Translations under genes and position numbers: made by a program
Notes under the pieces: model-generated
What the model was told of the DNA's origin: nothing
Databases searched by the model: none
What the model saw: the letters and a program-made list of their open reading frames with translations, nothing else
Shown: positions 11,590 through 37,013 of the stretch, in pieces
How positions within the stretch are numbered: position 1 is the first letter of the stretch
Layout of the letters: each line of letters opens with the position of its first letter
NCBI GenBank assembly: GCA_919903025.1
Contig: CAKKSE010000024.1
Span: 3,175 to 67,174 of the forward strand
From: Nitrospiria bacterium
GTDB lineage: Bacteria > Nitrospirota > RBG-16-64-22
Length of the DNA: 64,000 bases
Direction of reading: 5' to 3'

Positions 11590-13673
11590 GGAACGACCTT
11601 GACTCCGACCGCCCGGCTGTCGCCGAACCACGCGACACCTTCTTTCACCAACCGCCACTCGGTCGCGTAGTATCCCGGCCTATTCGGAGCCGTGTACGTG
11701 ATGCGGATCGATCGAGTATCGCCGGAACGGACAACGCTCCCATCGGGCAGCGGGATTCGCCGCGGACCGAGCGGATTCGAATCGGTCGCGGCGCCCAGAA
11801 AGATCCCACCCGATGTGGACCACTCCTCACGCCCGGTGTTCCTCACGCGAATCCATGCCTCCGCCGAAGATCCCGCCTTCATCTCGGACGGAAACTCTCC
11901 TTGCACAATGGCCGCGTCCAACACGCCCCCCCGATCCTTCCGAAGCTTGTTGAAAATCCCCTTGTCGTCTGGATTCATGCTGAACATATAGAAGTCCGAC
12001 TGCCAGAGACGCAGGACCCGGATGAGGTGGGCCTTTTCCATCCATGTTGGAAACTTCTGCCAATACCAGGAAACCTCCCCGTTATAGACCGCGAGGACCA
12101 TATGCGAGATCGGGTACCGGCCGAAAGGATCGTCGAAATTGAACCAGGGCTCCCACGCATACAAGGTTTTCGCCCGGTTCTCCAGGCAGAGCGCGGGCGC
12201 CGCGAGACCCGCGACTGTTCCTTCGCCCACGACGCCGGCGAGCTCGCGGGAAGTCTGAACCATTGTATACTGCCGGCCCTTGGCCCAGACAGCATACTGG
12301 CGCCCGTCGATGAGAACCGAGGCCACGAGCAGGATCCCGACGGCCGCCGGCCGCCAGATCCTCGTCCATTCCATCTTCGGCCGCCGAGACAAGTTGATCA
12401 GGATGAACACGAGACCCGCCGCCAGGACAGCGGCAAGCGCCCATTGGATCCACCGCGGTCCCAAAGACCCGATCCTCCATCCCACGACCACGGGAACAAG
12501 CACCATGTAGCGAATTGCCACGGCCGCCCAGAGCCAGCCGATGATCCAAGCCAGGAAAGCCCAGGAGCGGGCCGCGCTTCCTTCGGGATCGGCGGCGCGT
12601 GTCGCCAGTGCTCGTCCCGCCATCAGGGCAACCGCGGGAATCAACGGCACGTAGTACCGGTCCGGCCGGTAACTAAGGACCCCGAGTCCCAGAACTCCCG
12701 CGGCCAGCCAAAGGACAACGAGCCATTCCGCCGCATCGAACCGCCGCCACCGGGCGAGGGTCGCCGCAACGACCGCGCCGGCTCCGGCGAACCCCGTCGC
12801 GAGCGCGACGGGCGACCGCAGAAAATATGAGAAGAACGGGTTGTCGTGCAGGTTGTTGAACAACTGAGCGGCCGACCTTGGCATGCTGACCCTTTTCCAG
12901 GCCTCCCCGATCCGGAGAATGTCCTCCCGGTTTGGGGAAAAGAACAGCAAGTACCACAAACCCATCACGACCGCCATCCCCAAGAAAACCGCCGCCATTC
13001 CCTGGACGGCCCGACGGCGGTCCGCGCCCCGCGCCATCAGAACGTCCACGATCAGGACCGCCGTAAACGCGGCGACAAAGTACAGGGCCAGTGACTTGCT
13101 CACGTACACGCATGCGCCGCTGACTCCCGCCGCGACGGAATACATCCAGTGCTTGTTCCGCCCGCGGTTCCAAAGAAACGCCGTCAGCACCATTAGGAAC
13201 GTGTAAGGCGTCTCCAGGAGCCCCAGACGGCTGTACATGACCGCGTAGAAGCTTGTCCCCAGGAAGAGCGCCGAATACAGGCCCGCTTCCCGGCTCCACG
13301 CCTCGGACGCAAACCGATAGATCAGAAAGACGGAAGCCGACCCCAGTACAATCGGAATCAGCCGCTCCTGGAGAAACCCAACGCCAAGCAGATGAAAAAC
13401 GAGGACCTGGACGAAATGGAGAAGCGGACTGTAGTAGTAGCTGTTGAACTCGTCCAGCCGCCACTGGCCGAACAGAACGGTGTTGCGGGCGTTGTGGACC
13501 AGCGCCCCTTCGTCGAAGAAGAGCCCACCGCTTCCGCTCAAATGCGCCGGAGGGTCGGCATAGGGGAAAAGAACGCGAAGGAGAACGGAAACCAGAAGGA
13601 CCGCGCCGATGCCTATACCGTGGAGCAAGCTAAGCGCCTTTCCCGCATTCGCTCCCCACTTCGGCGACGGCAT
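11586..13673 (-). CDS. GT-C-fold (PMT/ArnT-like) membrane glycosyltransferase with C-terminal NBR1-like Ig domain
   Basis: LFFDEGALVHNARN (FDE motif), many TM helices. C-terminus: AWIRVRNTGREEWS...YTAPNRPGYYATEWRLVKEGVAWFGDSRAVGVKVV. Start is ATG 13673 (44-nt overlap) or a TTG immediately after the upstream TAG. Confidence 0.7.
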   Translation of the reverse strand: MPSPKWGANAGKALSLLHGIGIGAVLLVSVLLRVLFPYADPPAHLSGSGGLFFDEGALVHNARNTVLFGQWRLDEFNSYYYSPLLHFVQVLVFHLLGVGFLQERLIPIVLGSASVFLIYRFASEAWSREAGLYSALFLGTSFYAVMYSRLGLLETPYTFLMVLTAFLWNRGRNKHWMYSVAAGVSGACVYVSKSLALYFVAAFTAVLIVDVLMARGADRRRAVQGMAAVFLGMAVVMGLWYLLFFSPNREDILRIGEAWKRVSMPRSAAQLFNNLHDNPFFSYFLRSPVALATGFAGAGAVVAATLARWRRFDAAEWLVVLWLAAGVLGLGVLSYRPDRYYVPLIPAVALMAGRALATRAADPEGSAARSWAFLAWIIGWLWAAVAIRYMVLVPVVVGWRIGSLGPRWIQWALAAVLAAGLVFILINLSRRPKMEWTRIWRPAAVGILLVASVLIDGRQYAVWAKGRQYTMVQTSRELAGVVGEGTVAGLAAPALCLENRAKTLYAWEPWFNFDDPFGRYPISHMVLAVYNGEVSWYWQKFPTWMEKAHLIRVLRLWQSDFYMFSMNPDDKGIFNKLRKDRGGVLDAAIVQGEFPSEMKAGSSAEAWIRVRNTGREEWSTSGGIFLGAATDSNPLGPRRIPLPDGSVVRSGDTRSIRITYTAPNRPGYYATEWRLVKEGVAWFGDSRAVGVKVVP

Positions 13674-14739
13674 CTTCCGTCTTCTCGGTTCTTGCCGGAG
13701 AGGGTCTGAAGATGAGGTTCCCGAGGATCGTCTGATACGCCTCGCAGGGAGTCCAACACTGAGCGCAGTGTCCTTTCTCGATGTTCTCCCGGACCCTCAC
13801 AACGTGCGGCAGATTCCAAATGCGCCGGAGGTCGTAGTCGTGGTCCCGCAGATTGGCGAGAGGAAGATTGTCCATGCTGCACGGGTACACAACACCGGTC
13901 GGATCGATGAAGCACGAGGCGGACAAGGCTTTGCAGGGCATGGGCGTCCTTCCAGTCGCGAGGAACCCTCCGATCCGTGATTGATAGACCCGCTCCACGA
14001 AGGCAACCGGATGCAGACGGCGCCGCCGGTGCGCCCGGTACCAGTGGAGCGATTCCTCTATGTCCCGCTGGGACAAACTGGCCATCCCCGTGTTCTCATA
14101 ATAGTGCTCGGACTGGTGCGCGACATTGACGTGAAGCTCATCCGCGGTAATGTTCGGAATCCGGCCGCGGACAGCCTCCAGCGTCTCTTGAATCTTGTCG
14201 AAGTTCCTGGGAGTCAATGTCATGCCGAGGTATGCCTCGAACCGGCCAGATCTCATTTCGCGCAGCCGCGCAAACGTCCGAACCGATTTCTCCCAACTTC
14301 CCTTCACCCCCCGCAGGTGCTCGTGGACCGCCTCGTCTCCGTCCAGACTTACGGTGACGATCAGTTTCTTCGGGTGTCTCGCCAGGATCTGTTCCACCCC
14401 GTCCACGATCAGGTCGGTCATGACCCCGTTTGTCGGGAAATCCAGGACGTACAGCGCTTTGCATCGGTCCATGATGACGTCGACGATGCGTGTGAAGTCC
14501 CCCCGAAGGAAGACCTCGCCACCGCTCAGGTTGATCCAGGAGAAATCGGCGTTCCGGCTGAAGAAGCGGTCGTATTCCTCAAGAGACAACTCATCCCGCG
14601 CTTCCCGCTGCCAGATATTGCACATCTGGCAGCGCAGGTTGCACCGGTACGTCAAGATCAGCGTAAGCTTATAGGGAAAGGCAAGCCGCCGGACGTTCGA
14701 CGCCAGGATCGCCGTTGCCAGCTTAAGCGTTTTGCGCAC
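13630..14739 (-). CDS. Radical SAM protein with SPASM domain #1
   Basis: CNLRCQMC (CX3CX2C) near the N-terminus; C-terminal Cys cluster CKALSASCFIDPTGVVYPCSMD...CAQCWTPCEAY. Confidence 0.8.
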   Translation of the reverse strand: MRKTLKLATAILASNVRRLAFPYKLTLILTYRCNLRCQMCNIWQREARDELSLEEYDRFFSRNADFSWINLSGGEVFLRGDFTRIVDVIMDRCKALYVLDFPTNGVMTDLIVDGVEQILARHPKKLIVTVSLDGDEAVHEHLRGVKGSWEKSVRTFARLREMRSGRFEAYLGMTLTPRNFDKIQETLEAVRGRIPNITADELHVNVAHQSEHYYENTGMASLSQRDIEESLHWYRAHRRRRLHPVAFVERVYQSRIGGFLATGRTPMPCKALSASCFIDPTGVVYPCSMDNLPLANLRDHDYDLRRIWNLPHVVRVRENIEKGHCAQCWTPCEAYQTILGNLIFRPSPARTEKTEDAVAEVGSECGKGA

Positions 14740-15934
14740 CAGCGTACTCCGTGTTCTTCCCCCGGTCGGGTGTCTGCGCGAACATGCGCACCACCTCCCG
14801 CATGACCTCGTCGACCGTGATGCGCTTCATGCAAACCGGGTCGTTGCAGTTGCTGCTCTTCGCGTTGAAGTTCGTGATGCACGGACTGCACGGAAGAGCC
14901 TTGTAAAAAACGTGGCAGGGACCCAACCGGGGCCCATACAAAACCGGCGTATTGGGTCCGTAGAAACCCATGCAAGGAGTTCCCATCGCAGCCGCCAGGT
15001 GAATCGGGGCCGTATCGTTCGAGAGAAAGATCGCGCAACGCCTCATCAGGGCCGCAAGCTGGGAAAGCGTCAGGGTTCCGCTCGCGTCAACGGCTGATCC
15101 AGCGGGCATGCGGCCCAGCGCATCCGCGATCAGCCCCCGTTCTGCGGGCGTCCCCGTGAAAACGATCCGGGCGCCGTACTCCCGATGGAGCCTCGCTCCC
15201 ACCTCCGCGAACCGATCGATCGGCCACCTCCGTTGGGGAAAGTTCTCTCCGGACCCGGGATGAATCCCCACGATCGGATCTCCCTCCCCCACTCCGCAAT
15301 CCGCCAGAAACTGTTGCACTCGCTCATCATCCCCCGGAGCGAGATGCATCGGAACGGCGGCCGCGTCCCGGCAATCCACGCCGATCATCCGCGCCACGTC
15401 ATTGAAAGTATGGTACGAGTGCTGGTGGTCGTTGTATGGAATCCGGTGCGTATAGACGAACCCCCGGCCCTGGCCCGCCGTATCCAGGCCGGCTCTCCTG
15501 CGGCCGCCGCTCAACCACGCCAGAAGCGCGGTCGTCCTCGAGAATTGGTCGAAATCCAGGACCCAGTCGAAGGACAGCCCCCGAATCCGGCGAATCGTCC
15601 GCACCGAGCTCGCGAAGAACCGCAACACCCCGGACACGTCGAGGTAGACGGCCTCGTCAACGTCCGGATTCCTGTCGAGAGCCCCCCGGTTGGGGGAAAG
15701 CGTCAGGAACACGATCCGGGCACTTGGATACCTCTCGCGGATGCCGCGGACTACCGGCTGAAGGATGATCAGGTTCCCAATTCCCCACGACTTGATGAGG
15801 AGGATTCGTTCGATCTCGCGCTCGTCCCCGGACCAGACGATCCTGGACCACAGCCGGCCCGCGGTCCCAAGGAGGAAGCAGAGCGGAATCCCGACGAAGT
15901 AGTCGAGCTTCTTCATGAACCACAGCCGGATCAT
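14723..15934 (-). CDS. GT9-family glycosyltransferase (heptosyltransferase-like) #3
   Basis: ILLIKSWGIGNLIILQP; AIFLSNDTAPIHLAAAMGTPCMGFYGPNTP; C-terminal CSPCITNFNAKSSNCNDPVC. Confidence 0.8.
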   Translation of the reverse strand: MIRLWFMKKLDYFVGIPLCFLLGTAGRLWSRIVWSGDEREIERILLIKSWGIGNLIILQPVVRGIRERYPSARIVFLTLSPNRGALDRNPDVDEAVYLDVSGVLRFFASSVRTIRRIRGLSFDWVLDFDQFSRTTALLAWLSGGRRRAGLDTAGQGRGFVYTHRIPYNDHQHSYHTFNDVARMIGVDCRDAAAVPMHLAPGDDERVQQFLADCGVGEGDPIVGIHPGSGENFPQRRWPIDRFAEVGARLHREYGARIVFTGTPAERGLIADALGRMPAGSAVDASGTLTLSQLAALMRRCAIFLSNDTAPIHLAAAMGTPCMGFYGPNTPVLYGPRLGPCHVFYKALPCSPCITNFNAKSSNCNDPVCMKRITVDEVMREVVRMFAQTPDRGKNTEYAGAQNA

Positions 15935-16000: not shown

Positions 16001-17545
16001 CTAGATCGCCACTTTCCGCGAGAGGCTAAGCTCGTCCGATCCTCGGCCCGTTGCCCTCCTCTTCGCGCCGATGCCGACCAACCCGCCCGCCTTGAATCTG
16101 ATGAGAGTGAGGAAGAGAATGAAATATCGCCAGACGTCTCCGAAGGACCGGATGCTTCCCAATACTTTCGGAATCTTCCGCGTCCATCGGATCGACTTCT
16201 TGGCGACCGAAAAGCGGACCATGATCTCGCACAGTTGTCCCCATGTCAACCGGTCCAAATAGAGCGGCGCGTGCCCCTGCGCGGCCGGAAGGACGATGGC
16301 CCGGCGGTCGTTCTCGATCGACCAGGAGAAATCCTTCGGGATATTACCCTCCGCCCGCGCGCGCTCCTCCAGCGGGGTCCCCGGGTAGACGTGGAGGATC
16401 GCGACGCTCGTTTCGCACTTACCCTCCAGATCCTCGATGATCGACATCGTCTCCCTGGCCTCGTTCCAAGTTTCCGTAGGGTGGCTGAAGATGAAGAAGG
16501 GATTGGCGTTGACGCCGAACTCTCCGCACCATTCGATCACGTCGTAGGCCTGGCCCAGCGTGGCTTTCTTTGTGATTATGTCGCGGCAGATTCGCTCCGA
16601 TCCGGACTCGATCCCGAATCCGACGTGGTAGAGCCCCGCCTCCACCATCTTGGCAAACAGAGACTTGTTCAGAATATCAACGCGGACCTCGCAAAACCAC
16701 TTGATTCCAAGCCGCCGCTCGATGATGAGATCGCAGATGGCGGCGGTCCGCGCCCGGCTGAAGTTGAACGTGTCGTCGTAGAACCAGATGACGCGGCTCC
16801 CATACCGGTCCGCGAGGTGTTCGACCTCCGCCACGACCTTCTCCGGGCTGAGAGACCGGACTTTCGTTCCCCAGTTCGACGGTGTCGCGCAGAACTTGCA
16901 CGTAAACGGGCACCCGCGGCTCGTCATCATGTTTCCGGCTGGAAGGAGACCGTGCCCCGGAACTTCCATGCTAAAATTGTACCGCCCCCATGGCTCCAGG
17001 TGCCGGGCGGGAAGGGGAAGGCTGTTCAGGTCGGCGATGAGGGGGCGCGGGGAGTTCTCCTGAATCGTTCCATCCGGCCGCCGGAAGGAAAGGCCGGCGA
17101 CCCGGCCGAGATCGCCCACCGCTCCGAGACAGCGGACGAGATCCCGCATCGTCTCCTCCCCCTCCCCCGAGATCACGGCATCCACCGCCGGAACGTGCGC
17201 CAAGGTATCGCGCGCCGTGTTCTTGAGATGAGGTCCGCCAAGGACGGTCAGGGCCGGCGGAAACGCCGCCTTGGCGGTTTCCGCCACCCTGAAGCTCAGG
17301 AACCTGTTCTCCGTCGTCGTGGTGATTCCTACCACGTCGGGGCGGTCCGTTTCGATCTTCCGGGCCAGCTCTTGCCACGAAAGGTCCAGGACGTGAGAGG
17401 GAACGATCTCTACATCAATGCCGTCCGTCTCCAGAACGGCCGCGATATACTGAATCCCCAGAGCGGGCATCATCGATCCGCCCGACCAACGCTCCGCGAA
17501 GTACCCCCCGGGGGGAACAATAAGCATGACCCTCGGAATCTTCAC
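16001..17545 (-). CDS. B12-binding (class B) radical SAM enzyme
   Basis: N-terminal B12-binding-like Rossmann region (MLIVPPGG...GITTTTEN...VLGGPHL) followed by TSRGCPFTCKFC (CX3CX2C). 514 aa. GTG start at 17545 after AGGAG. Confidence 0.8.
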   Translation of the reverse strand: MKIPRVMLIVPPGGYFAERWSGGSMMPALGIQYIAAVLETDGIDVEIVPSHVLDLSWQELARKIETDRPDVVGITTTTENRFLSFRVAETAKAAFPPALTVLGGPHLKNTARDTLAHVPAVDAVISGEGEETMRDLVRCLGAVGDLGRVAGLSFRRPDGTIQENSPRPLIADLNSLPLPARHLEPWGRYNFSMEVPGHGLLPAGNMMTSRGCPFTCKFCATPSNWGTKVRSLSPEKVVAEVEHLADRYGSRVIWFYDDTFNFSRARTAAICDLIIERRLGIKWFCEVRVDILNKSLFAKMVEAGLYHVGFGIESGSERICRDIITKKATLGQAYDVIEWCGEFGVNANPFFIFSHPTETWNEARETMSIIEDLEGKCETSVAILHVYPGTPLEERARAEGNIPKDFSWSIENDRRAIVLPAAQGHAPLYLDRLTWGQLCEIMVRFSVAKKSIRWTRKIPKVLGSIRSFGDVWRYFILFLTLIRFKAGGLVGIGAKRRATGRGSDELSLSRKVAI

Positions 17546-18326: not shown

Positions 18327-18365
18327 ATCCCTACCCCCCAAATGTGGGCCGAATTTTCGTAATGG

Positions 18366-19170: not shown

Positions 19171-19186
19171 GCGCCAAAACTTCCGA

Positions 19187-19229
19187 CAAGCCCGGACAGG
19201 CAGCGAACACTGCCGGCCCGTCCGGGCTT
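19187..19229. terminator. Bidirectional terminator hairpin between convergent genes
   Basis: AAGCCCGGAC (19188-19197) pairs with GTCCGGGCTT (19220-19229). It lies between the TAG at 19170 and the minus-gene stop at 19243. Confidence 0.45.
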
Positions 19230-19242
19230 GCATTTCCAGCGG

Positions 19243-21693: not shown

Positions 21694-22476
21694 GGGCCCG
21701 GTTCCTCCTCGCGCATCCGGATGATCCGCGCGGGAACCCCTGCCGCAATCGCGAAGTCCGGGACGGACTCCCGCACAACCGCCCCGGCGCCGATCACCGC
21801 GCCCCGTCCAATTGTGACGCCGTCCAGCACGGTAACTCCCGCCCCCAGCCAGGCTTCCTCTCCGATCGCAACGCCCCCCTTAAGGTAAGATTCCTGTTCG
21901 GAGATAGGAAGATCCATCCGGTCGAACCTGTGGTTCCCGCCGGCCAGAATATAGCAATACGCGGACACCAGCGCCCCCGCGCCGATTTCCACCCGGCTCT
22001 CCGAATGGATCAGGCAGTTGATTCCGATTTTCGCCGAAGGACCGATCCGGACATCTCCCTCCTTACAGCTGACAATCGAGTTCCGGCTCACAAGAACGTT
22101 GTCTTCAAGAACGATACCGTGGTTTTCCGAACCTTTCGCGTCGAGAACCACGTTGTCATCCAGCACGACGTTCGAACCCAGTGCAATCTTTTTTGGATGT
22201 CGCAGGGTCAAGTTCCGGCCGAAGATCGTCCCCCGCCCCTGGGAGCCGAGGAGCGGGCGATAGCAGACCCTGCGGGCCGCGAATCCTGCCGCCCCTGGAA
22301 GTCCCCCCGCCAGCGTGAGGATCTCGTAAAGAAACAGGAAACCGAGTCCCCGCTCTCCGACGACGAACCTCCGGTATTTCTCCACCATTCCGCCCGCCCG
22401 GCCTTCGTCCTCGGCGACAAGGTTGTGGAAAGCCTCCGCTCGGCTCTTAGGATAATCGGGATGTTTCTGGGTCATA
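21690..22476 (-). CDS. Hexapeptide-repeat (left-handed beta-helix) acyltransferase, probable sugar O-acetyltransferase
   Basis: Repeated [LIV]G-X4 hexads: IALGSNVVLDDNVVLDAKGSENHGIVLEDNVLVSRNSIV...IGAGALVSAYCYIL...VAIGEEAWLGAGVTVLDGVTIGRGAVIGAGAVV. ATG at 22476 overlaps the upstream TGA (ATGA). Confidence 0.8.
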
Positions 22477-22924
22477 GGCCAAAAAAGGAACTGTCCGTGA
22501 TCAGCCACTGACCATCCTTCTTCCTGTAGTCCAATCGCCATCTCCCCTTGCCGGAACTGCCGAACGTCGACCGGCCGTACTCCCGGACCTGAAACTCGCT
22601 CACAATCTCCAGCCGGCCGAAGTCTCCATCGATCCTTCGGTAGGAATCTTCGTAAAGAAGAACGCGTATCTCCTCGAAATCAGCGTAATCGGCCTGGAGC
22701 TCATCATATTCCTCGAAGTATCCGCCGCTCGTCTTGTCCCAGTACGAAAAAGCAAGGCTCTTCTGCCGAATCTCCTCGGCGAAAGCATAAAACTCCTCGC
22801 GCAGGATCTCCTCATCGGTCTTGACAACCTCGGGTTCCGCCGGGTTGGATCCACCGCACCCGGCCAGCGCACCCCAGAGCAGAATCGCCGAAACAATCCG
22901 ACCCGATCCCAGAAACCTGATCAT
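22472..22924 (-). CDS. Small lipoprotein of unknown function
   Basis: ORF 22472..24259 trimmed to MIRFLGSGRIVSAILLWGALAGCGG (lipobox LAGC). GGAGGAGG upstream; ATG 22924 overlaps the TGA of the rSAM gene (ATGA). Confidence 0.65.
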   Translation of the reverse strand: MIRFLGSGRIVSAILLWGALAGCGGSNPAEPEVVKTDEEILREEFYAFAEEIRQKSLAFSYWDKTSGGYFEEYDELQADYADFEEIRVLLYEDSYRRIDGDFGRLEIVSEFQVREYGRSTFGSSGKGRWRLDYRKKDGQWLITDSSFFGL

Positions 22925-23973
22925 GCCTCCTCCACGATCTTGAGCCCGCGGCTCCTCCCGGTCCCAAACCCCCGACGTCTCCGCCCGTATCCCAGGATCT
23001 GGTCGGTCAGGAACCGCCGCAGGTTGGGAGTCGGAACGCCCGCGAACGTCGGACGGTAGATTACGTCGCAAGCAGAACACGCCGAGTAGTGTTCCACACG
23101 CCGTGCCAGCATGTCTTCCCTCAGCCGACGGAGCGCGTCCCCGCGCCAGATCTCCATGAGCGACGCATCCCGGACGTTCCCCAGGGGATATGCCCCGAAG
23201 AAGTCCTGCGGACAAGTCACGGCCGTGCCGTCCCAGAAGATCACCAGAGCGAACCACGGAAACGTGCACGGAACGAAGCGCCGTTTCGAGGGTACCTTGC
23301 TCGCGTCGTAGCTCCCGGCCCAGTTGTGGGGGGCCTTGATCCTGAGCTCGTCGAGCGGCAGATCCCGGAAACGCTCGACGAACAGCCTCCGCGCGTCCGG
23401 ATCGACGTTCCCCATCGACGGAAAATCGATGACCTCGATGACGGTGTACGGCTTCCGGCTTCCCAGCGATTTCTTGACCCGCAGGAACTCCACGATGTTT
23501 CCGAGCGTCTTCTCGAACGAACCCCGGACCCGGATTCTCTCGTACGCCTCCTTCTCGAACCCGTCGAACGAGAAGGAAAGGTAATCGAGGCCCGAACGGA
23601 CGACCGCCTCCGCCTTCTCGGCGTCGATCGCAGCCCCGTTGGTGTGCAGTTTCGTCCGAATCCCTTTCCGAGCGGCATACGCAAGCAGGGGAGCAAACTC
23701 CGGATGGAGGGTCGACTCCCCCCGGTGATGAACAGCCATGTCGTACGCAAAAGCGGACGCCTCGTCCACGATCTTTCGAAACAGATCGGGCTCCATCATT
23801 CCGGGCTTCGGGGCCGACGGAAGGCTCGTCGGGCACATGACGCACTTGAGATTGCAGGCGTTCGTCATCTCGACCCAGAGCCGGACCGGGGAATAGGGAA
23901 CTCGCGCGCTCCGGACGACGGCGTACCGCCAGTACATTCGCGCGAGATGGAGAAGATGTCCGGGCGTTCCCAT
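22921..23973 (-). CDS. Radical SAM protein with SPASM domain #2
   Basis: EMTNACNLKCVMCP (CX3CX2C); C-terminal CTFPWFALVIFWDGTAVTCPQD...YSACSACD. Confidence 0.8.
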   Translation of the reverse strand: MGTPGHLLHLARMYWRYAVVRSARVPYSPVRLWVEMTNACNLKCVMCPTSLPSAPKPGMMEPDLFRKIVDEASAFAYDMAVHHRGESTLHPEFAPLLAYAARKGIRTKLHTNGAAIDAEKAEAVVRSGLDYLSFSFDGFEKEAYERIRVRGSFEKTLGNIVEFLRVKKSLGSRKPYTVIEVIDFPSMGNVDPDARRLFVERFRDLPLDELRIKAPHNWAGSYDASKVPSKRRFVPCTFPWFALVIFWDGTAVTCPQDFFGAYPLGNVRDASLMEIWRGDALRRLREDMLARRVEHYSACSACDVIYRPTFAGVPTPNLRRFLTDQILGYGRRRRGFGTGRSRGLKIVEEA

Positions 23974-23982
23974 TATGCAATC

Positions 23983-24987
23983 CTACGCGAGGTCCCCCGC
24001 GGCGCGGTACCAGGCCACCGTCCGCGGGATCCCCTCCCCCAGCGGGACCCGCGCCGTGAAGCCGATCAGCCGCGCGGCCTTGGACACATCGTACGCGCGG
24101 GGCTTGAAGAAGAAATCCACCTTCGCTCTCGTAAGGGGCGCTTCCGATCCAAAAATCCGAAATGCGTCCTCCAGCAAACCGGCGGCGAACCGCAGGGGTT
24201 GGCGGGGAACATGGATACGGCGGAGGCGGACCCCCAGGGAGTCGGCAATGACCTCGCAAAGCTCACGAATAGGCACGATCTGTGCGCCTCCCAGCGTCAG
24301 GATCTCTCCCGCCTTCAGGCCGGCCGTCAGGCATCGGCCCATCCCTTCAACCAAGTCCTCGACGAAGATCGGATGCTCGATGGTCCTTCCGTCGCCCACG
24401 AAAAAGAAATACCTCTTCTGAATCGCCCGCATCAGTTTGAGCGTCCGGCGGTCGCCCGGGCCGTAGACCCAGGTCGGGCGGACGATGACGACCGGATCCC
24501 CCTCCGCCGCGAAGCGCCTGGCGATCTCCTCGCCTTGCTGTTTCGACAACTCGTAAATGTCCTCCGGATGGTATGGCGCATCCTCGCCAGCCGGCGGACC
24601 CTGGATCGACCCCAGAACGCCCACACTGCTCACATGGACGAACCGACGGACGCCCGCCCGCCGCGCCGCGCTCAGGACGTTTTCCGTCCCGCGGGCATTG
24701 ACTTCCAGAAAGCGGCCGCGGTCCACCGGCGCGGCTCCCAGCAGACTGGCGAGGTGAAAGACCCCCTGGACCCCCTCCATTGCGCGAAGAACCGACTCTC
24801 GGTCGCCGACATCGCCTGGAACGATCTCGACACCCGCGTCGCCCCGCCCCATCGCCGCGGACCGCCTGGACAGGACTCGAACGGAATACCCGTTCTCCGT
24901 CAGCCGACGGCAAAGATGCCGGCCGATGAATCCGGTCCCGCCCGTGACAAGAATTCCATCCGGCGGCCGCAACGCTTCGCTCGGCAT
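23983..24987 (-). CDS. NAD-dependent epimerase/dehydratase (SDR family)
   Basis: ORF 23983..25218 trimmed to MPSEALRPPDGILVTGGTGFIGRHL (ATG 24987, TGATG overlap). YELSK catalytic Y-X3-K. Confidence 0.8.
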   Translation of the reverse strand: MPSEALRPPDGILVTGGTGFIGRHLCRRLTENGYSVRVLSRRSAAMGRGDAGVEIVPGDVGDRESVLRAMEGVQGVFHLASLLGAAPVDRGRFLEVNARGTENVLSAARRAGVRRFVHVSSVGVLGSIQGPPAGEDAPYHPEDIYELSKQQGEEIARRFAAEGDPVVIVRPTWVYGPGDRRTLKLMRAIQKRYFFFVGDGRTIEHPIFVEDLVEGMGRCLTAGLKAGEILTLGGAQIVPIRELCEVIADSLGVRLRRIHVPRQPLRFAAGLLEDAFRIFGSEAPLTRAKVDFFFKPRAYDVSKAARLIGFTARVPLGEGIPRTVAWYRAAGDLA

Positions 24988-26142
24988 CAAGTATACGCTT
25001 CCGCGACCCTGTTCCGATAAACCGCGTACGAATAACGCTCCCGGGCGAGACAGGCCGCCCTTGTTCCGAGCGAGAGACGCTTCTCCGCGTTCTCGACGAC
25101 GTCGAGGATGGCGCGAGCCAATCCTTCCCGGGTCGGCGCGGCCATCACCGCCACGGTCTCGTCCAACACCTGTCGATGAGTCTCCAGGTCCGTCGCGACG
25201 ATCGCCTTGCCGGCCCACAGGTACGAGTAGATCTTGAGTGGCGTGTTCGTGCCCGTCGTCCGCGGAGACAGAAGAACATCCGCGAGGGCCAGGTACAACG
25301 GCATCTCCTCGGGAGGCCGCTTCCCGACGATCCGAATGTTTTCCCCCACGCCCGCCCGGTCGGCCATGGACCGGTAACGGGCCTGCTGGTCCGGATCTCC
25401 CCCGACCAGAACGAACACGACGTCCGGCCGCCGGCCGACGATCCAGGGGATCCCTTCGATCAAAAGGTCGAGCCCTTGATTCACCTCGAACGTTCCTGTG
25501 TAGACAGCCGCCAGCTTTCCGTCGAGGCCGAGAGACTCCTTCAGGCGGCCCACGTCTTCCATTGACGGTTGGCGTTCCGCCGCCACGGGTTGGTTCTCAA
25601 TGAGGAGCACCCTCTTGTCCGGCGAGAGAGCGTTGACACACCTGACGAGCTCCGGGCAGACGGCGATAACCACGTCGGACCGCCTTACGACCCAGCGTTC
25701 GAACCACCGCATCAGGGAAATCACAGGCTCCAACCGCGTCCATCCGTAGTTCCTGAGCTGTTCGGGAAGGCTCGAGTGCATGTCGTACACATGACGATAG
25801 GAAAAAAACCGCCGGAGAAGGGCCCCGATGCCGCCCGCCTCTTCGTGCGTGTGGACCACGTCGTATCGGCTCTTCATCAGGCGTCGAAGCGTGGTCGCCA
25901 AAACGAGGATGTCGAGGGGAAACTTGATCCAGGACGGCCCGATGGGGATGGATCTTAGGAACGGAAGATTCGCGGTCCGGTAGATCCGAAGACCCGGAAT
26001 CTGCACATCCTCTCCCAAGGGGTAAGTGACAAGGTCAACCTCGTGACCGAGATCTGTCAGCGCCCGAACCCGGGCGAGAACGCTGAACGGCGTCCCCCGT
26101 GGCTGGAAAAAGGGCTGAGGCGCGATCATCAGAATCCTCACC
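24987..26142 (-). CDS. GT4-family glycosyltransferase
   Basis: Large ORF trimmed to GTG 26142 (GGAGAG-N6-GTG; MRILMIAPQPFF). The GTG overlaps the TGA of the upstream MTase (GTGA). LLSPRTTGTNTPLKIYSYLWAGKAIVATD. Confidence 0.75.
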
Positions 26143-26908
26143 GATCGCTCTCCTCGGCTTGCCGCCCGCAGAGGATCGTTGCCGGAGCGCCGAACCGTCG
26201 GGCGAGACCCAGCCGGGTCATGATACCCTCCACCCCCTCGGAGAGCCGACGGCTCCCGATCAGCCGGTGCACAGCGAGTGGAACGACGAATTCCCGGTGA
26301 ACTTCCAGCACGCGGAATCCTTCTGCGCCGAGTTCTTCGGTAAGTCTCGAAAGGCGGAAAGTCCTGTAGGCCTGAACGTCCCTCAAACCAAGCCGTTCCA
26401 TCGCGCGGCGAAAAGGAGGCGCCAGGGCGGCCAGGCTCGCACTCGGCGGAACATCCAGAATCACGCGCCGCCGGGCCACGCGGCAGATCTCGCCGAGGGC
26501 CTTCCTCCAGTCGGGCACGTGCATAAGCACGCGGAAGCAGACGACCGTATCGAACGAACGGGCGGAAAAAGGGAGGGCCTGCGCATCGGCGGTCTCGAAC
26601 GACATGGCGAAACCAAGCGAGGCGGCTTTCTCCCTCGCGACATCCATCATGGCCGGCGAAGCGTCCGACGCCGTGACCATCCCACCCTCGCGCGCAAGCG
26701 CGAGGGAGGCGCGGCCCGTGCCCGCCCCCACATCGAGAAACGTCTTCCCCGCAATCTCCGTCCCCAGCATCCGCAAGAGAACGGTCTCCTGGCGCTCGGC
26801 GACCATAACGCCGATGGGACCCCCAAAGCGGTCCGTATCGAATCCCTGCGCCACGTCCGGCCTCGCGTACAGGGAGTAACTGTAATGGGCCCGTGTCGAG
26901 GCCTTCAC
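26138..26908 (-). CDS. Class I SAM-dependent methyltransferase
   Basis: Trimmed to GTG 26908 (GGGAGG-N4-GTG), overlapping the TGA of the upstream hydrolase. FLDVGAGTGRASLALA motif I; VVCFRVLMHVPD. Confidence 0.75.
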   Translation of the reverse strand: MKASTRAHYSYSLYARPDVAQGFDTDRFGGPIGVMVAERQETVLLRMLGTEIAGKTFLDVGAGTGRASLALAREGGMVTASDASPAMMDVAREKAASLGFAMSFETADAQALPFSARSFDTVVCFRVLMHVPDWRKALGEICRVARRRVILDVPPSASLAALAPPFRRAMERLGLRDVQAYRTFRLSRLTEELGAEGFRVLEVHREFVVPLAVHRLIGSRRLSEGVEGIMTRLGLARRFGAPATILCGRQAEESDR

Positions 26909-27477
26909 ACCCAGCCTCCCAGCTTCGCGCGGGACACACCCTTCAGTCGCCCGCTCTTCCAGAGCCATACAGCTCCGATCAACGGGAGAAAGATGCCCGC
27001 TTCCAGCCCGAATTCGACAAGGTTGTGGGGATCCCAAAGATCCGCCAAGGATCCCTTCTTGACGCCAGGGAAGAGGCTTACGGGTGAAAGAAACCGTTCG
27101 CTGGAAAAGGGCCAGAGGAGCATGACGCCGATCGGGGGAAAGGTATCGTCGCCGAGGCTGTCGAGCAGGACATGGGCGTACGTCAAGGCGGCAAAAAAAG
27201 GCCACCCGAGGGAAAGGGGGATTCCGCGCTTTCTGAAAAAGAAACCGAAGGCTAGCCCCGCCGTGGCGGCGAACCCGATCGAGTGGGTGATCCCCTGGTG
27301 AAACGGGGAGACCGCCTCGAGGCCCACTACGACGGCCGGCAGAAGATCGAGGTCCGGCAAGTTCCCCGCGATCAATGCGGCGATCCAGAACACAGGCTCA
27401 TTCTTGGAGTGGATTTTCCGGCCTGCGATCGACGCCAGTAACCAGCTCGCCAGCGTATGACCAATCGGTGACGGCAT
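26905..27477 (-). CDS. Membrane-bound metal-dependent hydrolase (YdjM/DUF457-like)
   Basis: MPSPIGHTLASW...GNLPDLDLL...GITHS; 4-5 TM helices. Confidence 0.6.
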   Translation of the reverse strand: MPSPIGHTLASWLLASIAGRKIHSKNEPVFWIAALIAGNLPDLDLLPAVVVGLEAVSPFHQGITHSIGFAATAGLAFGFFFRKRGIPLSLGWPFFAALTYAHVLLDSLGDDTFPPIGVMLLWPFSSERFLSPVSLFPGVKKGSLADLWDPHNLVEFGLEAGIFLPLIGAVWLWKSGRLKGVSRAKLGGWV

Positions 27478-34300: not shown

Positions 34301-34756
34301 ACTGAGCGCCAGGAGGATGGCTGCGGCGGCCGCGCCCGCCCGGTCCATGAGTCTTCGGCCCAGTCGGTACACGATCACAACGGTGCCCGCGCCGGCAACG
34401 GCCGACGTCGCGCGAGCCAAAAGCAAATATGTTTCGTGGCCGAATACCGGCACGGTCGAGGGACGAACCGGTCCCAGAATCGCGCTCACCCCCCCGGCGA
34501 TTCTCTCCGCCAGGAAAAAGACGAGTCCGAGGATGTACTGGAAAAAAGGCGGGTAGATCCCCTCCGGCCTCAGCGCGCCGCGGCTGAAGTCCGCGGCCAT
34601 CATCATCGTGTAGGCCTCGTCCTGATGGTACCCTTCCGGGAGACCGAATCCGATCCCCCAGAGCCGCAGGATCAGCGCAACGGCGCCGACCGCCGCTATC
34701 TCCCAGACTCCGTCGGACGGCTTGCGTGAAAGTAAAATCGGAGGGGATTCCGCCAT
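31301..34756 (-). CDS. GT39/ArnT-like GT-C glycosyltransferase fused to TPR repeats and C-terminal beta domains
   Basis: N-terminal PMT_2/ArnT-like region (EGYHQDEAYTMMMAADFSRG; FLGLATQTKYNAVF). Central TPR-like helices (ELARLYEATGKKSEAVGEYLRLLDLIPYHGEA). C-terminus has the same FGPYDYYPRGAYRAVFRLQ domain as the neighbouring gene. Confidence 0.7.
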   Translation of the reverse strand: MAESPPILLSRKPSDGVWEIAAVGAVALILRLWGIGFGLPEGYHQDEAYTMMMAADFSRGALRPEGIYPPFFQYILGLVFFLAERIAGGVSAILGPVRPSTVPVFGHETYLLLARATSAVAGAGTVVIVYRLGRRLMDRAGAAAAAILLALSPLHVRDSHFAMPDTTMVFWSALFVLAAAAAMEKRSGGSYALMGFFLGLATQTKYNAVFLYVVAWAAHAAAARGEGLPIRRFLWDRRLLFLHAGLAAGLFAGSPYLFLEWRRLGPIMLTVPSVLMRGSLRESAETVELTYVNPENWRAGFESTLAALGWTGIVAGAIGVVWILWTRNRRLSAILSFVPVYFVIVAVAVRHFRIRDTLPLLPFVALAAGAGAGTLARRGRIGWAAYGILLMVAVFELGRPTLLMDYLFWQRDNRQVAADWIRRNLPIGATIGFDRYNPPVTGELYGIEKNLADVGLDEARKRAEYYVTSSFWYMRYLFAPEHHPESRFYRDLESKAVLLKTFDLPATGWTNPKIQIYALRNSKGAVPGRGPWIPRPSAGPQNASDVVFLDGSIYETSSLGGHAGPDRPFERVLVSRGPIESVLVILRNGERPNSVRIESGLARDRLVLRSGEIRHFLVRPRRPLPVWGSLRDDDLLSAEFLRKPAKEPYERFVSRVRIVAHAEVSVELAADAFEIGSRLLEGGLARDAIPFLDAVGARRHPEAKWLLAVAYSRAGESEKAARLFDAVPMWAGEAGAAYRRIVQAGDGSEIWKSAFASTWGVDPDLFLATRTVRYRAADLHSLEGSGEVLGSVRRFDPVRDKPGFLLFGPYDYYPRGAYRAVFRLQTTKASGSAREADNPVLRLDVYNGRVLVQREVSAEESGGPQRVSLDFFNDRTDRPLEFRVKVLRPAHVWVEGIEIEPQLGPSIAAYLAEVQIERSRVLFRQGRLGEALAALNEISPPLGGGSDWLLELARLYEATGKKSEAVGEYLRLLDLIPYHGEAISRIEGLGFSGVSTAARDRLLRRKEEISPQRMAEAVFGGRLQFLGWTVSPSSARPGEDVKVAYYWKCIEPLVRDADVFVHFESPGGGFQDDHRPRREDVGTGAWMKGEVVRYDRIVRIPPGAAMGRHAVYLGIWDPRGGGVREEVSRTTLPVRDRAVQIGFLEVVSPKP

Positions 34757-34759
34757 GTG

Positions 34760-35155
34760 TCAGGAGTTCGAGGACAAGCTGTCCGGCCGGTCTCCCGGGA
34801 CGGCGGATTGGGCGCGGAACCGGCTCACTTCCTCGGAGAGAAGGGCAGACTCCTGCGCAAGGTCCTTGACCTGATCGGTCAGGCGGGAGATCTTGATCGA
34901 GAAGTGGAGGCTGATCAAGACAAGAAAGATGAGACCAAAGAGAAACAACGTGGTCGCCGGCCACACAACCCCGAGCAGCGACGTGAGCCTTTCGAGAAGC
35001 GGAAACCACAGCGCAAGAACAAGTATCCCGATCCCGGTCGCAAACCACAGCACGGAATACTCCTCGCGGAGTTTCCTCTTTCGAATCAGCTCGAGGATCG
35101 CAACGAGGATTCCCAGTCCGATCACCACAGCCAGGACTTGAACGCGAATATTCAC
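34760..35155 (-). CDS. DUF2304-family small membrane protein
   Basis: 131 aa, 3 TM helices, ELIRKRKLREEYSVLWF motif. Immediately downstream of a soluble GT2, a conserved pairing. Confidence 0.65.
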   Translation of the reverse strand: MNIRVQVLAVVIGLGILVAILELIRKRKLREEYSVLWFATGIGILVLALWFPLLERLTSLLGVVWPATTLFLFGLIFLVLISLHFSIKISRLTDQVKDLAQESALLSEEVSRFRAQSAVPGDRPDSLSSNS

Positions 35156-35158
35156 GGC

Positions 35159-35872
35159 TTATTCCCTCCTCGGCCGGGGGGCCTCCCGCAGGAGCGTTAC
35201 GAGTATGGAGAGGCTCACCTTGAAGACGTAGTATGCGGGCACGATCCCGTTGATGAACGAGCGGCCTCCCAGCCGCGGCCGCATCGAAACGGGAACCTCA
35301 CGAACGCGAAATCCCGCCCGCTTCATCAGAACGCGCAGGTCGGCGTCCTGGAAGTCCGTCGGATAGTCCATCTCCGCGAAGAACTTGAAAACGGGTCGCT
35401 TGAGGGCTCGAAAGCAGGACGTCGAGTCCGTCACGCGCTGCCCGGTCAGGATCGTCGCCAGTCCGTTGAAGAACAACATCCCGATGCTCCGCATCCTCGT
35501 CGGACGGTAGCCGCGGTCCTCCAGAAACCTCGATCCAATCGCCGCGTCAACGCCCTCATCCCCGAGGACCTGAAGGAGCGCAGGAACATCCCGCGGATCG
35601 TGCTGACCGTCCGCGTCGATCTGGATGACGACGTCATATCCGCGGCGGACTGCGTACCGGAATCCCGTCTGGGCCGCGGCGCCGGCCCCCAAGTTGACGG
35701 GATGGGAAACAACCCCCGCCCCGGCGGCGCGGGCCGTCTCCGCGGTTCGATCCCTCGATCCGTCGTTGATGACAAGGCAATCCACGCCCCCCGCGTAGTC
35801 CGACATCTCCCGGAGAACGACCGGCAGGTTCGCCTCTTCGTTGTAGGCCGGGATAATGGCCAGGACTTTCAT
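35159..35872 (-). CDS. GT2-family glycosyltransferase (polyprenyl-phosphate sugar synthase-like, DUF2304 partner)
   Basis: MKVLAIIPAYNEEANL, CLVINDGSRDRT, IQIDADGQHDP. Confidence 0.8.
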   Translation of the reverse strand: MKVLAIIPAYNEEANLPVVLREMSDYAGGVDCLVINDGSRDRTAETARAAGAGVVSHPVNLGAGAAAQTGFRYAVRRGYDVVIQIDADGQHDPRDVPALLQVLGDEGVDAAIGSRFLEDRGYRPTRMRSIGMLFFNGLATILTGQRVTDSTSCFRALKRPVFKFFAEMDYPTDFQDADLRVLMKRAGFRVREVPVSMRPRLGGRSFINGIVPAYYVFKVSLSILVTLLREAPRPRRE

Positions 35873-35897
35873 CGATCCCCCCCGCCCCTTCGGTCCG

Positions 35898-37013
35898 TCA
35901 TTCGCGGATTCGAACCACCCGGCAGCGCAAGCAGATGTTTTCTTCCGTCCGGGAATTCATCAGCGGCAAGGCGGCCCGACGCCCCTGGTTCGTCAACCTC
36001 CTCGAGAAGACGAAGGATTCGTTGTTCCAGACATCGGAAAACCCGGCCCTCGGACCCATGACCCCGAAATAGCTTCGGATATCCTCGTTATAGTAGCAGC
36101 AGGGCGATACGCTTCCGTCCCAGTTGATCACCCCCGCCCGGTACAACCATGCGCATCGACGCGGCTTCTTTTTGTGCTTTTCCTGCCTTGTCCGGTAGTC
36201 GTACATGCTGTAGCGTTCGTCCGCCGGGAGCCATTTTTCGAACTGCTCGTCGCTCGATGGATCGATCCCGACCGCTGTAAACCGAAACACGTCGACCCCC
36301 CATTCGGCCGCGAGCCGCCGCGCCTCCGCCATCTCGCGCTCGTTGTGCCGCATCACGATGAACTGCCACTCGATGACGGGCCGGCGCCGATTGAGCTTCC
36401 TCCGCGCTTCGATCACGGCCCTGAGGTTCTCCGTTGCGCGCGCGAAATCGCCCCCCACGCGGTACACGGCGTACGTCTCCGGCGTCGTTCCGTCGATCGA
36501 GACCGTCAGGTGTTCCAGCCCGGACTCCACGATCCGTTCGGCGTCTCCAGGCTTGAGGACCGTCAGGTTGCTGGTCACCGAGACCCCGACCCCTTTCTCC
36601 GCCGCGTACGAGATCATACCGTAAATCCCCGGAAGGAGAAACGGCTCGCCCCATCCGTACAGGAGGACCTGAAAACAATACGGCCCCAGTTCATCGATGA
36701 CTTGGCGAAACAGCCCCTCGTCCATCGCCCCCGACGGGTTGTCCCCCGCCGCCAGGCCGACCTTCCACATTCTGGTTCCGGATCCCGTGTGGCAGAGCGG
36801 ACATCGCAGATTGCACTTGTTCGTCGGGTAGACCTTCAATACGTAAGGATAACCCCGAACCACCTCACGGCCGATCAACCGATCGAACTCGACGCGAATG
36901 AGATTGCCCAGCCTTCGAACGGTCAGATGACGGAGGAAGGCCCGCAAGAAATTGAGAAGCCTTCGCGACTCCCCGACGATCCCGAAACGAAACGCGAACC
37001 CCGATACTGCCAT
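35898..37013 (-). CDS. Radical SAM protein with SPASM domain #3
   Basis: YPTNKCNLRCPLCHTG (CX3CX2C); C-terminal CAWLYRAGVINWDGSVSPCCYYNE...CLRCRV. Confidence 0.8.
   Translation of the reverse strand: MAVSGFAFRFGIVGESRRLLNFLRAFLRHLTVRRLGNLIRVEFDRLIGREVVRGYPYVLKVYPTNKCNLRCPLCHTGSGTRMWKVGLAAGDNPSGAMDEGLFRQVIDELGPYCFQVLLYGWGEPFLLPGIYGMISYAAEKGVGVSVTSNLTVLKPGDAERIVESGLEHLTVSIDGTTPETYAVYRVGGDFARATENLRAVIEARRKLNRRRPVIEWQFIVMRHNEREMAEARRLAAEWGVDVFRFTAVGIDPSSDEQFEKWLPADERYSMYDYRTRQEKHKKKPRRCAWLYRAGVINWDGSVSPCCYYNEDIRSYFGVMGPRAGFSDVWNNESFVFSRRLTNQGRRAALPLMNSRTEENICLRCRVVRIRE

Follow-up and report, generated by a model that had tools for sequence, protein, structure and literature searches.

What would three radical S-adenosylmethionine (SAM) enzymes do inside a cluster of sugar-assembly genes? 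The question is raised by a 64-kb stretch of contig CAKKSE010000024.1 from the Nitrospiria bacterium assembly GCA_919903025.1 (the window; all positions refer to it), in which an earlier note had described three such genes, here called rSAM1, rSAM2 and rSAM3, and had suggested that they modify sugar intermediates by radical oxidation, epimerisation or deoxygenation. Judged from their sequences, structural models and gene neighbourhoods, the three proteins are best read as uncharacterised variants of twitch-type radical SAM enzymes recruited to envelope-glycan assembly. We consider it somewhat better than an even call that they tailor a complex envelope glycan during its assembly, and the broader idea that sugars are oxidised or epimerised by radical chemistry appears reasonable.

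All three open reading frames (ORFs) described before are present on the minus strand (Table 1), with coding-like GC contents at the codon positions (GC3 0.76–0.80) and a CNL[RK]CxxC cluster motif in each translation: CNLRCQMC in rSAM1 (C33/37/40), CNLKCVMC in rSAM2 (C40/44/47) and CNLRCPLC in rSAM3 (C67/71/74). Each protein scored above the Pfam gathering thresholds for both PF04055 (Radical_SAM, cut-off 29.5 bits) and PF13186 (SPASM), with 47.4 and 32.7 bits for rSAM1, 66.0 and 53.5 bits for rSAM2, and 64.3 and 30.6 bits for rSAM3. When they were aligned with 116–119 database relatives each, the CX3CX2C motif was kept in 99–100% of the family members, which places all three in the radical SAM superfamily. 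A fourth radical SAM gene, cobalamin-binding and absent from the earlier note, lies immediately upstream of rSAM1 and its glycosyltransferase (GT) partner of family GT9; its best NCBIfam matches (ApyD, BchE and HpnJ) were all far below cut-off. The translational coupling to neighbouring genes that had been claimed for all three is tight for two of them: the end of the GT9 gene overlaps the start of rSAM1 by 17 nt, rSAM2 begins 9 nt after the stop of a short-chain dehydrogenase/reductase (SDR) gene, and its own TGA overlaps the ATG (ATGA) of a gene for a 150-aa lipoprotein. rSAM3, in contrast, is separated from its GT2 neighbours by gaps of 36 and 25 nt.

The C-terminal region of each protein had been described as a multi-cysteine auxiliary region of the SPASM type. 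The Pfam match and the C-terminal cysteines are there, but only four to five of the latter are conserved instead of seven. A canonical SPASM domain was defined by seven cysteines (CX9-15GX4C, gap, CX2CX5CX3C, gap, C) and its truncated form, the twitch domain, by four (CX~17-18C, a gap of ~43–55 residues, CX2C). Conserved at 99–100% were C269, C287, C325, C328 and C332 in the rSAM1 family, C236-x17-C254-x44-C299-x2-C302 in the rSAM2 family, and C287, C305, C306, C361 and C364 in the rSAM3 family, where the CC pair is invariant. The CX2CX5CX3C element was missing from all three family alignments, with CX2C or CX2CX3C in its place, and no full SPASM domain is present. The twitch pattern was found in rSAM2 (all four cysteines) and rSAM3 (C287/C305/C361/C364), and in a profile alignment the rSAM2 spacing matched the twitch domain of BtrN column for column; the five-cysteine pattern of rSAM1 is compatible with a twitch domain without being decisive. 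Four to five conserved cysteines leave room for one auxiliary [4Fe-4S] cluster, and a single cluster of the twitch type would fit all three proteins.

The designation of the three genes as paralogs holds for rSAM2 and rSAM3, which are sister families (28% identity, E 2e-28; hhalign profile–profile E 5.5e-59 over the full length), but not for the set as a whole, as rSAM1 is only distantly related (profile–profile E 2.8e-15). It shares ~22% identity with rSAM2 (E 1e-3), and its significant match to rSAM3 is confined to a 22-residue segment with the CX3CX2C motif. Searched against all PDB sequences, the rSAM2 family profile retrieved BtrN first (E 1.4e-24, twitch domain covered), followed by PqqE (8e-11), SkfB, BlsE, GDGT-MAS and DesII, and the anaerobic sulfatase-maturating enzyme anSME at 1e-6. 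The rSAM3 profile also ranked BtrN first (4.3e-23, twitch domain covered), then BlsE (8.6e-13), PqqE, SuiB and CteB, with anSME at 7e-4, while the rSAM1 profile found SkfB (2e-17, over the radical SAM core only) and then BlsE. AlphaFold2 models were confident (pLDDT 94.6 for rSAM1 and 90.7 for rSAM3); in Foldseek searches against the PDB, the model of rSAM1 matched SkfB, BlsE, SuiB and anSME, and that of rSAM3 ranked the sugar-acting BlsE and DesII first. By these comparisons, the closest characterised relatives of rSAM2 and rSAM3 are BtrN-type enzymes, then BlsE and DesII; rSAM1 is without a close characterised relative, and anSME is not close to any of them.

The earlier note had listed AprD4 beside BtrN and anSME among the clades for comparison. 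AprD4 was absent from the 25 best NCBIfam matches of each twitch protein and its model was matched only by the cobalamin-binding protein (119 bits vs. a cut-off of 500); of the clades named, BtrN is thus nearest to rSAM2 and rSAM3, anSME scores poorly and the three genes give no indication of AprD4-type chemistry. No NCBIfam equivalog cut-off was reached by any of the four radical SAM proteins, and the best scores of rSAM1–3 were three- to six-fold below. rSAM1 matched PTO1314 best (84 bits vs. a cut-off of 306), with MftC also among its top models, and the best matches of rSAM2 and rSAM3 were a tungsten-cofactor oxidoreductase maturase model (104–109 bits) and a Geobacter metalloenzyme maturase model. 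As all of these lie below the cut-offs, tungsten-cofactor maturase, MftC, PTO1314 and HpnJ were rejected as family names.

To our knowledge, characterised carbohydrate-acting radical SAM enzymes are few and belong nearly all to antibiotic pathways (BtrN, DesII, AprD4, BlsE, GenK). BtrN (2-deoxy-scyllo-inosamine dehydrogenase of the butirosin pathway, PDB 4M7T) shares with rSAM2 and rSAM3 the radical SAM core and a four-cysteine C-terminal twitch domain, and an N-terminal peptide-recognition domain is absent from both sides. On the other hand, the rSAM proteins are 80–100 residues longer, rSAM3 has a fifth invariant cysteine, and the genes stand in an envelope glycan context instead of an aminoglycoside pathway, with no 2-deoxystreptamine genes near them. 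Orthology to BtrN was rejected: none of the 48 window proteins gave a Pfam match of the 2-deoxy-scyllo-inosose (2-DOI) synthase type, and only a distant DegT aminotransferase gene is present. DesII and BlsE act on activated sugars (TDP-4-amino-4,6-dideoxyglucose and cytosylglucuronate, respectively) and were recurrent sequence matches of all three proteins, but structural similarity was limited (TM 0.48–0.57), NCBIfam scores reached only 32–39 bits vs. cut-offs of 400–450, and deamination or decarboxylation is not implied by any neighbour in the window.

The genomic setting is the second line of evidence. Pfam scans of the 48 predicted proteins revealed a continuous glycan-assembly super-cluster across the window, which has a G+C content of 58–67% and nearly all of its genes on the minus strand. 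The super-cluster comprises three GT9, about eight GT4 and six GT2 genes, a Wzx-type flippase, an SDR, a hexapeptide acetyltransferase, a DegT/LegC-type aminotransferase, a PpgS-like GT2 followed by a DUF2304 gene, and about ten SAM methyltransferases. Nine membrane proteins of the GT-C type (PMT_2 or YfhO) are also encoded, and six have an F5/8 type C lectin-like domain at the C terminus (the one at 9520-11658 and five in tandem at 44041-54417). Among reference genomes the nearest is Nitrospirae bacterium RBG_16_64_22 (rSAM1 90% identical, gene order shared), and a protein from a Nitrospirota metagenome-assembled genome (MAG) shows 100% identity to rSAM2.

Neighbourhoods in other genomes were taken from the 80 best matches per family, which are not a random sample and may include some related metagenome contigs; locus counts were obtained by tblastn with the window proteins, and those for the rSAM1 family are lower bounds. 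Relatives of rSAM1 (41–51% identity) were found in at least 547 of the 185,579 species genomes scanned, spread over Planctomycetota, Bacteroidota, Acidobacteriota, Geobacterales, Omnitrophota, the candidate phyla radiation (CPR), Woese-, Nano- and Altiarchaeota, and Methanosarcinales. According to Pfam, the same-strand upstream neighbour (62 loci) was GT9 in 15 cases, GT2 in 12 and PMT_2 in 6, and the downstream neighbour (56 loci) was another Radical_SAM protein in 16 cases (nine with SPASM, six with a B12 domain) and PMT_2 in eight. By tblastn, a glycosyltransferase homologue lay within 7 kb in 62/78 loci, a GT9 or small GT2 within 500 nt in 39/78 and a GT9 within that distance in 20/78; a further twitch/SPASM gene was detected in 34/78 and a B12-radical SAM gene in 19/78. 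Glycosyltransferases are estimated at a few percent of genes, and a rate of ~50% for the adjacent gene is thus far above chance. The association with glycosyltransferases seen in this window is kept in distant genomes. For instance, the order GT9 then rSAM1 recurs in Geobacterales, Planctomycetota, Omnitrophota, Parcubacteria, Nanoarchaeota and Woesearchaeota, with GT9 proteins 32–45% identical to that of the window, and the order B12-radical SAM gene, GT9, rSAM1 is kept in RBG_16_64_22 (L014). Parcubacteria and DPANN archaea are without lipopolysaccharide (LPS), and since the GT9 is shared with such organisms it is unlikely to be an LPS heptosyltransferase. Three tandem radical SAM genes of Geobacter were considered as orthologues of rSAM1, rSAM2 and rSAM3, which holds for the first only, the other two being 23–27% identical.

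Several further features were observed around rSAM1 relatives. In an Omnitrophota MAG (L016:4866-7004), the GT9 partner is fused to a SAM methyltransferase domain in a protein of 712 aa, a fusion that suggests methylation as part of the rSAM1/GT9 pathway; MT4-like methyltransferases also occur near GT9 and rSAM1 in four other loci (L059, L065, L069, L086). Two of these, L065 and L086, combine rSAM1 relatives, GT9, SDR and methyltransferase on contigs binned into Klebsiella pneumoniae or Enterobacteriaceae MAGs, a placement that reflects either mis-binning or horizontal transfer. B12-radical SAM genes occur in up to four tandem copies (L001, L174), and similar genes are found beside relatives of rSAM1, rSAM2 and rSAM3 in many loci.

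The rSAM2 family is associated with a recurrent module made up of an ArnC-like GT2, a GT4, the SDR, the acetyltransferase (41–54% identity), the LPG_synthase_TM flippase-like protein and the methyltransferase, which was recovered in at least eight metagenome loci (e.g., L100, L109, L111, L116, L120, L123, L136, L142) and in L013. Homologues of the SDR (37–44% identity) stand beside rSAM2 relatives in eight loci, those of the GT4 (35–45%) were found in eight, the genes of the downstream module recur in four, and ArnC-like GT2 homologues (51–61%) are adjacent or near in seven. In the window, the module genes lie around rSAM2 (19243-26939) and the ArnC-like GT2 elsewhere in the cluster, 14 kb away. 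The best NCBIfam matches of the SDR, HpnA (172 bits) and LegB (108 bits), were both under cut-off. A second arrangement, consisting of a GT9, a small GT2, one more gene and rSAM2, occurs in five loci (L011, L094, L095, L099, L113), and the extra gene in L011 is an RrnaAD-type methyltransferase. An amidotransferase with GATase_7 and Asn_synthase domains was observed in L011, L012 and L013, which come from unrelated genomes, either adjacent to the rSAM2 relative or at most 4 kb from it, and an asparagine-synthase-like amidotransferase also near the rSAM3 relative of Hakubella (L003); the Asn_synthase domain was found in none of the window proteins scanned.

Directly downstream of rSAM3 follow a PpgS-like GT2, a DUF2304 protein and a large GT-C, a module for which no flippase was identified. 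BtrN-like genes adjoin a PpgS-like GT2 and DUF2304 in the window, in L005, and, with genes of the rSAM2 type, in L121 and L127. Five of the six independent contexts of the rSAM3 family are glycan loci: L005, a close relative of the window with identical order and an rSAM3 relative 93% identical; L001 of Desulfolutivibrio sulfodismutans, with Wzx, Bac_transf, GT2, GT4 and four B12-radical SAM genes; L003 of Hakubella, with GT4s, Wzx and DegT; L174, an NCBI MAG with four B12-radical SAM genes, GT2 and PMT_2; and L175, an NCBI assembly in which Wzz, Wzx, GT4, Wzy, GT2 and GT4 precede the radical SAM gene in a classical Wzz/Wzx/Wzy operon. The sixth, L176 of SAR202, lies outside a glycan locus.

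Table 1. Coordinates of the radical SAM genes and of the neighbouring genes discussed in the text (window positions).
Feature	Position	Strand	Basis
ArnC/GtrB-like polyprenyl-phosphate sugar transferase (GT2)	7725..8765	-	NCBIfam ArnC 216 bits, full length, under cut-off
GT-C (PMT_2/ArnT-like) membrane glycosyltransferase, Ig-like domain at the C terminus, immediately downstream of rSAM1	11586..13673	-	Pfam PMT_2, PMT
rSAM1, radical SAM enzyme with five-Cys C-terminal auxiliary domain	13630..14739	-	Pfam Radical_SAM + SPASM; family Cys alignment
GT9-family glycosyltransferase, conserved rSAM1 partner	14723..15934	-	Pfam Glyco_transf_9
Fourth radical SAM gene, cobalamin-binding class B	16001..17545	-	Pfam B12-binding + Radical_SAM
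Methyltransferase, rSAM2 downstream module	19243-20148	-	Pfam
ORF without assigned family, rSAM2 downstream module	20114-20839	-	listed in module
LPG_synthase_TM flippase-like protein	20740-21693	-	Pfam
Hexapeptide acetyltransferase	21690-22541	-	Pfam; NCBIfam WbbJ/WcaF-like
Small lipoprotein, lipobox LAGC	22472..22924	-	translation; no NCBIfam match
rSAM2, BtrN-like twitch radical SAM enzyme, four conserved auxiliary Cys	22921..23973	-	Pfam; BtrN profile match
SDR epimerase/dehydratase, HpnA/LegB-like	23983..25218	-	Pfam Epimerase
GT4 glycosyltransferase of the conserved rSAM2 module	24987..26939	-	Pfam
1151-aa GT-C (PMT_2) with TPR repeats	31301-34756	-	Pfam, above cut-off
DUF2304	34760-35155	-	96.8 bits, above cut-off
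PpgS-like GT2	35159-35872	-	NCBIfam PpgS 105 bits, below 370 cut-off
rSAM3, BtrN-like twitch radical SAM enzyme, five conserved auxiliary Cys	35898..37013	-	Pfam; BtrN/BlsE profile matches
GT2 glycosyltransferase upstream of rSAM3	37050..38195	-	Pfam Glycos_transf_2; best NCBIfam MftF 106 bits vs. 280 cut-off
DegT/LegC-type sugar aminotransferase	55261..56619	-	Pfam DegT_DnrJ_EryC1 425 bits; NCBIfam LegC 359 bits vs. 420 cut-off

These modules resemble the three-component periplasmic systems (ArnC/ArnD/ArnT; PpgS/Rv3632/GT-C; DprE1/DprE2; the PPPRS/MATE/GT136 system of C. youngae with its SDR epimerase), with which they share a putative GT2 polyprenyl-phosphate sugar synthase, a small membrane protein (DUF2304) and a GT-C protein, the location of a tailoring enzyme gene beside the synthase and, in some cases, a GT-C with a C-terminal carbohydrate-binding domain. 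The tailoring enzymes known from such systems differ in being SDR, flavin adenine dinucleotide (FAD) or deformylase proteins, none of them radical SAM. In these systems, auxiliary epimerases diversify polyprenyl-phosphate sugars (pentoses), a GT-C of this kind carries a carbohydrate-binding module (CBM), and DprE1/DprE2 epimerise via a keto intermediate (PMC11127046). Full-text literature searching on radical SAM together with SPASM/twitch, polysaccharide and polyprenyl themes returned no paper on the three families; in the literature searched, no radical SAM enzyme was described in such envelope glycan modules, and a Geobacter transcriptome paper concerned unrelated genes only.

If the three proteins act as envelope-glycan tailoring enzymes, the 5'-deoxyadenosyl radical formed by reductive cleavage of SAM, the general mechanism of the superfamily, would abstract a hydrogen from a sugar carbon. 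For rSAM2 and rSAM3, the most likely reaction would convert a secondary alcohol into a keto-sugar by two-electron oxidation, the auxiliary cluster accepting the electron as in BtrN. Reduction of the ketone by an SDR encoded nearby could follow, and the two enzymes together would achieve a net epimerisation, analogous to DprE1/DprE2. Alternatively, a hydrogen atom might be returned directly to yield the epimer, for which the invariant extra Cys306 of rSAM3 is a candidate donor. rSAM1 would probably modify the product or the acceptor of its partner GT9 or of a small DPM1/PpgS-like GT2. As two of the three genes lie in GT2/GT-C modules (putative polyprenyl-phosphate sugar synthase plus ArnT/PMT-like protein), the preferred substrate would be a monosaccharide carried on polyprenyl phosphate or on a nucleotide, met on the cytoplasmic side of the membrane, followed by GT-C transfer in the periplasm. 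Substrate class, reaction type and membrane face are all inferred, on the basis of remote homology and of the genes nearby. The N-terminal extension of rSAM3 is basic and amphipathic, and the largest hydrophobic moment of the protein falls at residues 17–30; amphipathic N-terminal helices would be compatible with action on lipid-linked sugars at the membrane surface, a weak indication.

A more specific link, by which the radical SAM enzymes would generate keto-sugars for the DegT aminotransferase, had been offered as an example in the earlier note and did not hold up. The DegT gene lies 18–40 kb from the rSAM genes, and a homologue was found in only 1/78 rSAM1 loci and 4/55 rSAM2 loci. It is part of the same super-cluster without being linked to the rSAM genes, the case for specific keto-sugar feeding is weak, and the SDR beside rSAM2, with its LegB/4,6-dehydratase-like matches, could supply keto-sugars conventionally.

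Several points weigh against a role in glycan tailoring. The cluster's SDR enzymes could already make keto-sugars, which leaves the need for a radical dehydrogenase unexplained. The similarity to BtrN is remote (single-sequence E 1e-8 over the core), and none of the three families has a characterised member. Foldseek matches were moderate (TM ~0.45–0.62) and included the peptide-modifying SkfB, SuiB, anSME and CteB; fold alone cannot separate sugar- from peptide-acting enzymes, because the structural neighbours include both. The CX2CX3C arrangement within the five conserved cysteines of rSAM1 is not seen in BtrN, and its cluster content is uncertain. Finally, the association is not universal, as the relatives in L009, L012 and L176 are found away from glycan loci, and the neighbourhood counts carry no formal background control.

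The most interesting lead would extend the tailoring role across domains. rSAM1, together with a GT9 or small GT2 and with B12- and twitch-type radical SAM genes, might represent a previously unrecognised, horizontally mobile cassette of Bacteria, CPR and DPANN/methanogenic Archaea for the oxygen-independent radical remodelling of lipid-linked sugars (oxidation/epimerisation, ring contraction, C-methylation), with rSAM2 and rSAM3 as anaerobic counterparts of polyprenyl-phosphate sugar oxidases of the DprE1 type. In this full form we hold the proposal to be possible but less likely than not. Radical SAM remodelling of a sugar that a glycosyltransferase has already attached to a lipid has a precedent in HpnJ, which acts in hopanoid cyclitol ether formation and, as does the fourth protein of the window, combines B12 binding with a radical SAM domain, although the latter protein reached only 148 bits vs. 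the 578-bit HpnJ cut-off. Another example is the radical SAM enzyme Cds (calditol synthase), which remodels a lipid-linked sugar head group (PMC13459092). Unlike the settings of Cds and HpnJ, the window contains no hopanoid or tetraether genes.

The lipid itself is another possible target. The proteins could alter the polyprenyl carrier or else some membrane or anchor lipid (C-C coupling, methylation support, desaturation), in the manner of Tes/GDGT-MAS, Gms and HpnH, while the glycosyltransferases decorate the same lipid. GDGT-MAS was indeed among the PDB matches of rSAM2 and rSAM3, rSAM1 has a weak match to HpnH, the SDR is HpnA-like, and B12-radical SAM genes are frequent partners. In D. 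sulfodismutans, lipid A acyltransferase-like, acyl carrier and AMP-ligase genes stand beside the rSAM3 relative, and the basic N-terminal helix of rSAM3 suggests membrane contact. We nevertheless regard a lipid target as rather unlikely: BtrN is matched far better than GDGT-MAS or HpnH, both of which align over the radical SAM core only, the steadiest neighbours are glycosyltransferases and sugar-nucleotide enzymes instead of lipid synthesis genes, and the window scans contained no polyprenyl synthase, squalene/hopene or ether-lipid genes.

Peptide chemistry fares less well. Sactisynthase-, anSME- or epimerase-like maturases could act on a secreted protein or lipoprotein that is later glycosylated by the cluster, given that protein O-glycosylation is an activity that GT-C/PMT_2 enzymes can have. 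Among solved structures, rSAM1 has its best relative in SkfB, SuiB, CteB, anSME and EpeE are among the structural neighbours, C39 peptidase exporters account for 2/56 downstream neighbours of rSAM1 relatives, and rSAM2 is translationally coupled to the small lipoprotein gene. That lipoprotein, however, has a single cysteine, the one of its lipobox, and tblastn detected no copy of it in rSAM2-family loci, while the SkfB match is limited to the radical SAM core. At E ≤ 0.01, only the Radical_SAM and SPASM families of Pfam matched rSAM1–3, with neither a RiPP recognition element (RRE; RiPP, ribosomally made, post-translationally modified peptide) nor a PqqD domain; the position of the cluster motif at residue 33–67 leaves no room for an N-terminal RRE, and a separate PqqD gene is lacking. 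The absence of sulfatases and precursor peptides reported before was confirmed. No sulfatase was found among the 48 window proteins or among the 25 most frequent Pfam families flanking rSAM1-family loci, and in the gaps on either side of rSAM2 and of the B12-radical SAM gene the only short ORFs are lipoprotein genes, none of them Cys- or Gly-rich, although very short unannotated peptides are possible. anSME itself shares the broad fold class, the Pfam SPASM match and the lack of an RRE, but its seven to eight cysteines for two auxiliary clusters, including CX2CX5CX3C, are absent from the rSAM families, and an identity with anSME was rejected on the missing sulfatase, the low number of cysteines and the poor E values. 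The three proteins do not look like RiPP maturases, and we hold a peptide or protein substrate to be quite improbable. As maturases of a tungsten or heme-type cofactor that sit in a glycan cluster incidentally, they would be hardest to credit, for although the tungsten-cofactor and Geobacter metalloenzyme models top the NCBIfam lists of rSAM2 and rSAM3 and AhbC/AhbD and NirJ score too, all remain three- to six-fold under the curated cut-offs, no oxidoreductase, heme or molybdopterin genes lie nearby, and glycan neighbourhoods recur across phyla, which is not expected of an incidental location.

Some other features of the window deserve mention. The five tandem paralogous membrane proteins at 44041-54417 (-) have ~660–730 aa, and the protein at 9520-11658 (-), near rSAM1, is a sixth; three of these six F5/8 type C (discoidin)-domain proteins have an N-terminal GT-C match of the PMT_2 type, an architecture that recalls the GT-C-plus-CBM layout of GT136 periplasmic glycosyltransferases. 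Between a methyltransferase and the 1151-aa GT-C/TPR protein lies a 1005-aa ORF (28287-31304, -) with coding-like GC3 and no Pfam or NCBIfam match; its 1005-aa counterpart in L005 has a faint DUF6311 match only, and fragments with 28–41% identity were found in L071, L141 and L162. Only two genes are likely to be encoded on the plus strand. One (18685-19170) is a lipoprotein-like ORF with the lipobox LFGC, probably a real gene in preference to the overlapping ORF at 18796-19233 (-), and it adjoins a CarboxypepD_reg-domain lipoprotein (17697-18341, -). The other (39099-39821) is without a Pfam match, as is its likely counterpart in L005, a 223-aa ORF on the opposite strand at the corresponding position. 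The longest ORFs of the SDR (23983-25218) and GT4 (24987-26939) begin ~88 and ~280 codons ahead of their Pfam domains and overlap their upstream neighbours, and the true starts are probably farther downstream; the longest DegT ORF likewise begins ~90 codons early.

The three proteins represent uncharacterised families tied by conserved gene order to envelope-glycan glycosyltransferases, and one of these families, that of rSAM1, is distributed over both prokaryotic domains. Carriers are available from cultured organisms (Geobacter sp. AOG1, as an assembly, and Desulfolutivibrio sulfodismutans). If the enzymes do tailor nucleotide- or lipid-linked sugars, unusual monosaccharides of anaerobes would be explained without oxygen- or nicotinamide adenine dinucleotide (NAD)-dependent routes, new catalysts for glycoengineering would become available and a large set of genes now listed as 'hypothetical radical SAM' could be annotated. 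Should the cassette proposal also be true, radical SAM chemistry would be added to primary envelope-glycan biosynthesis.

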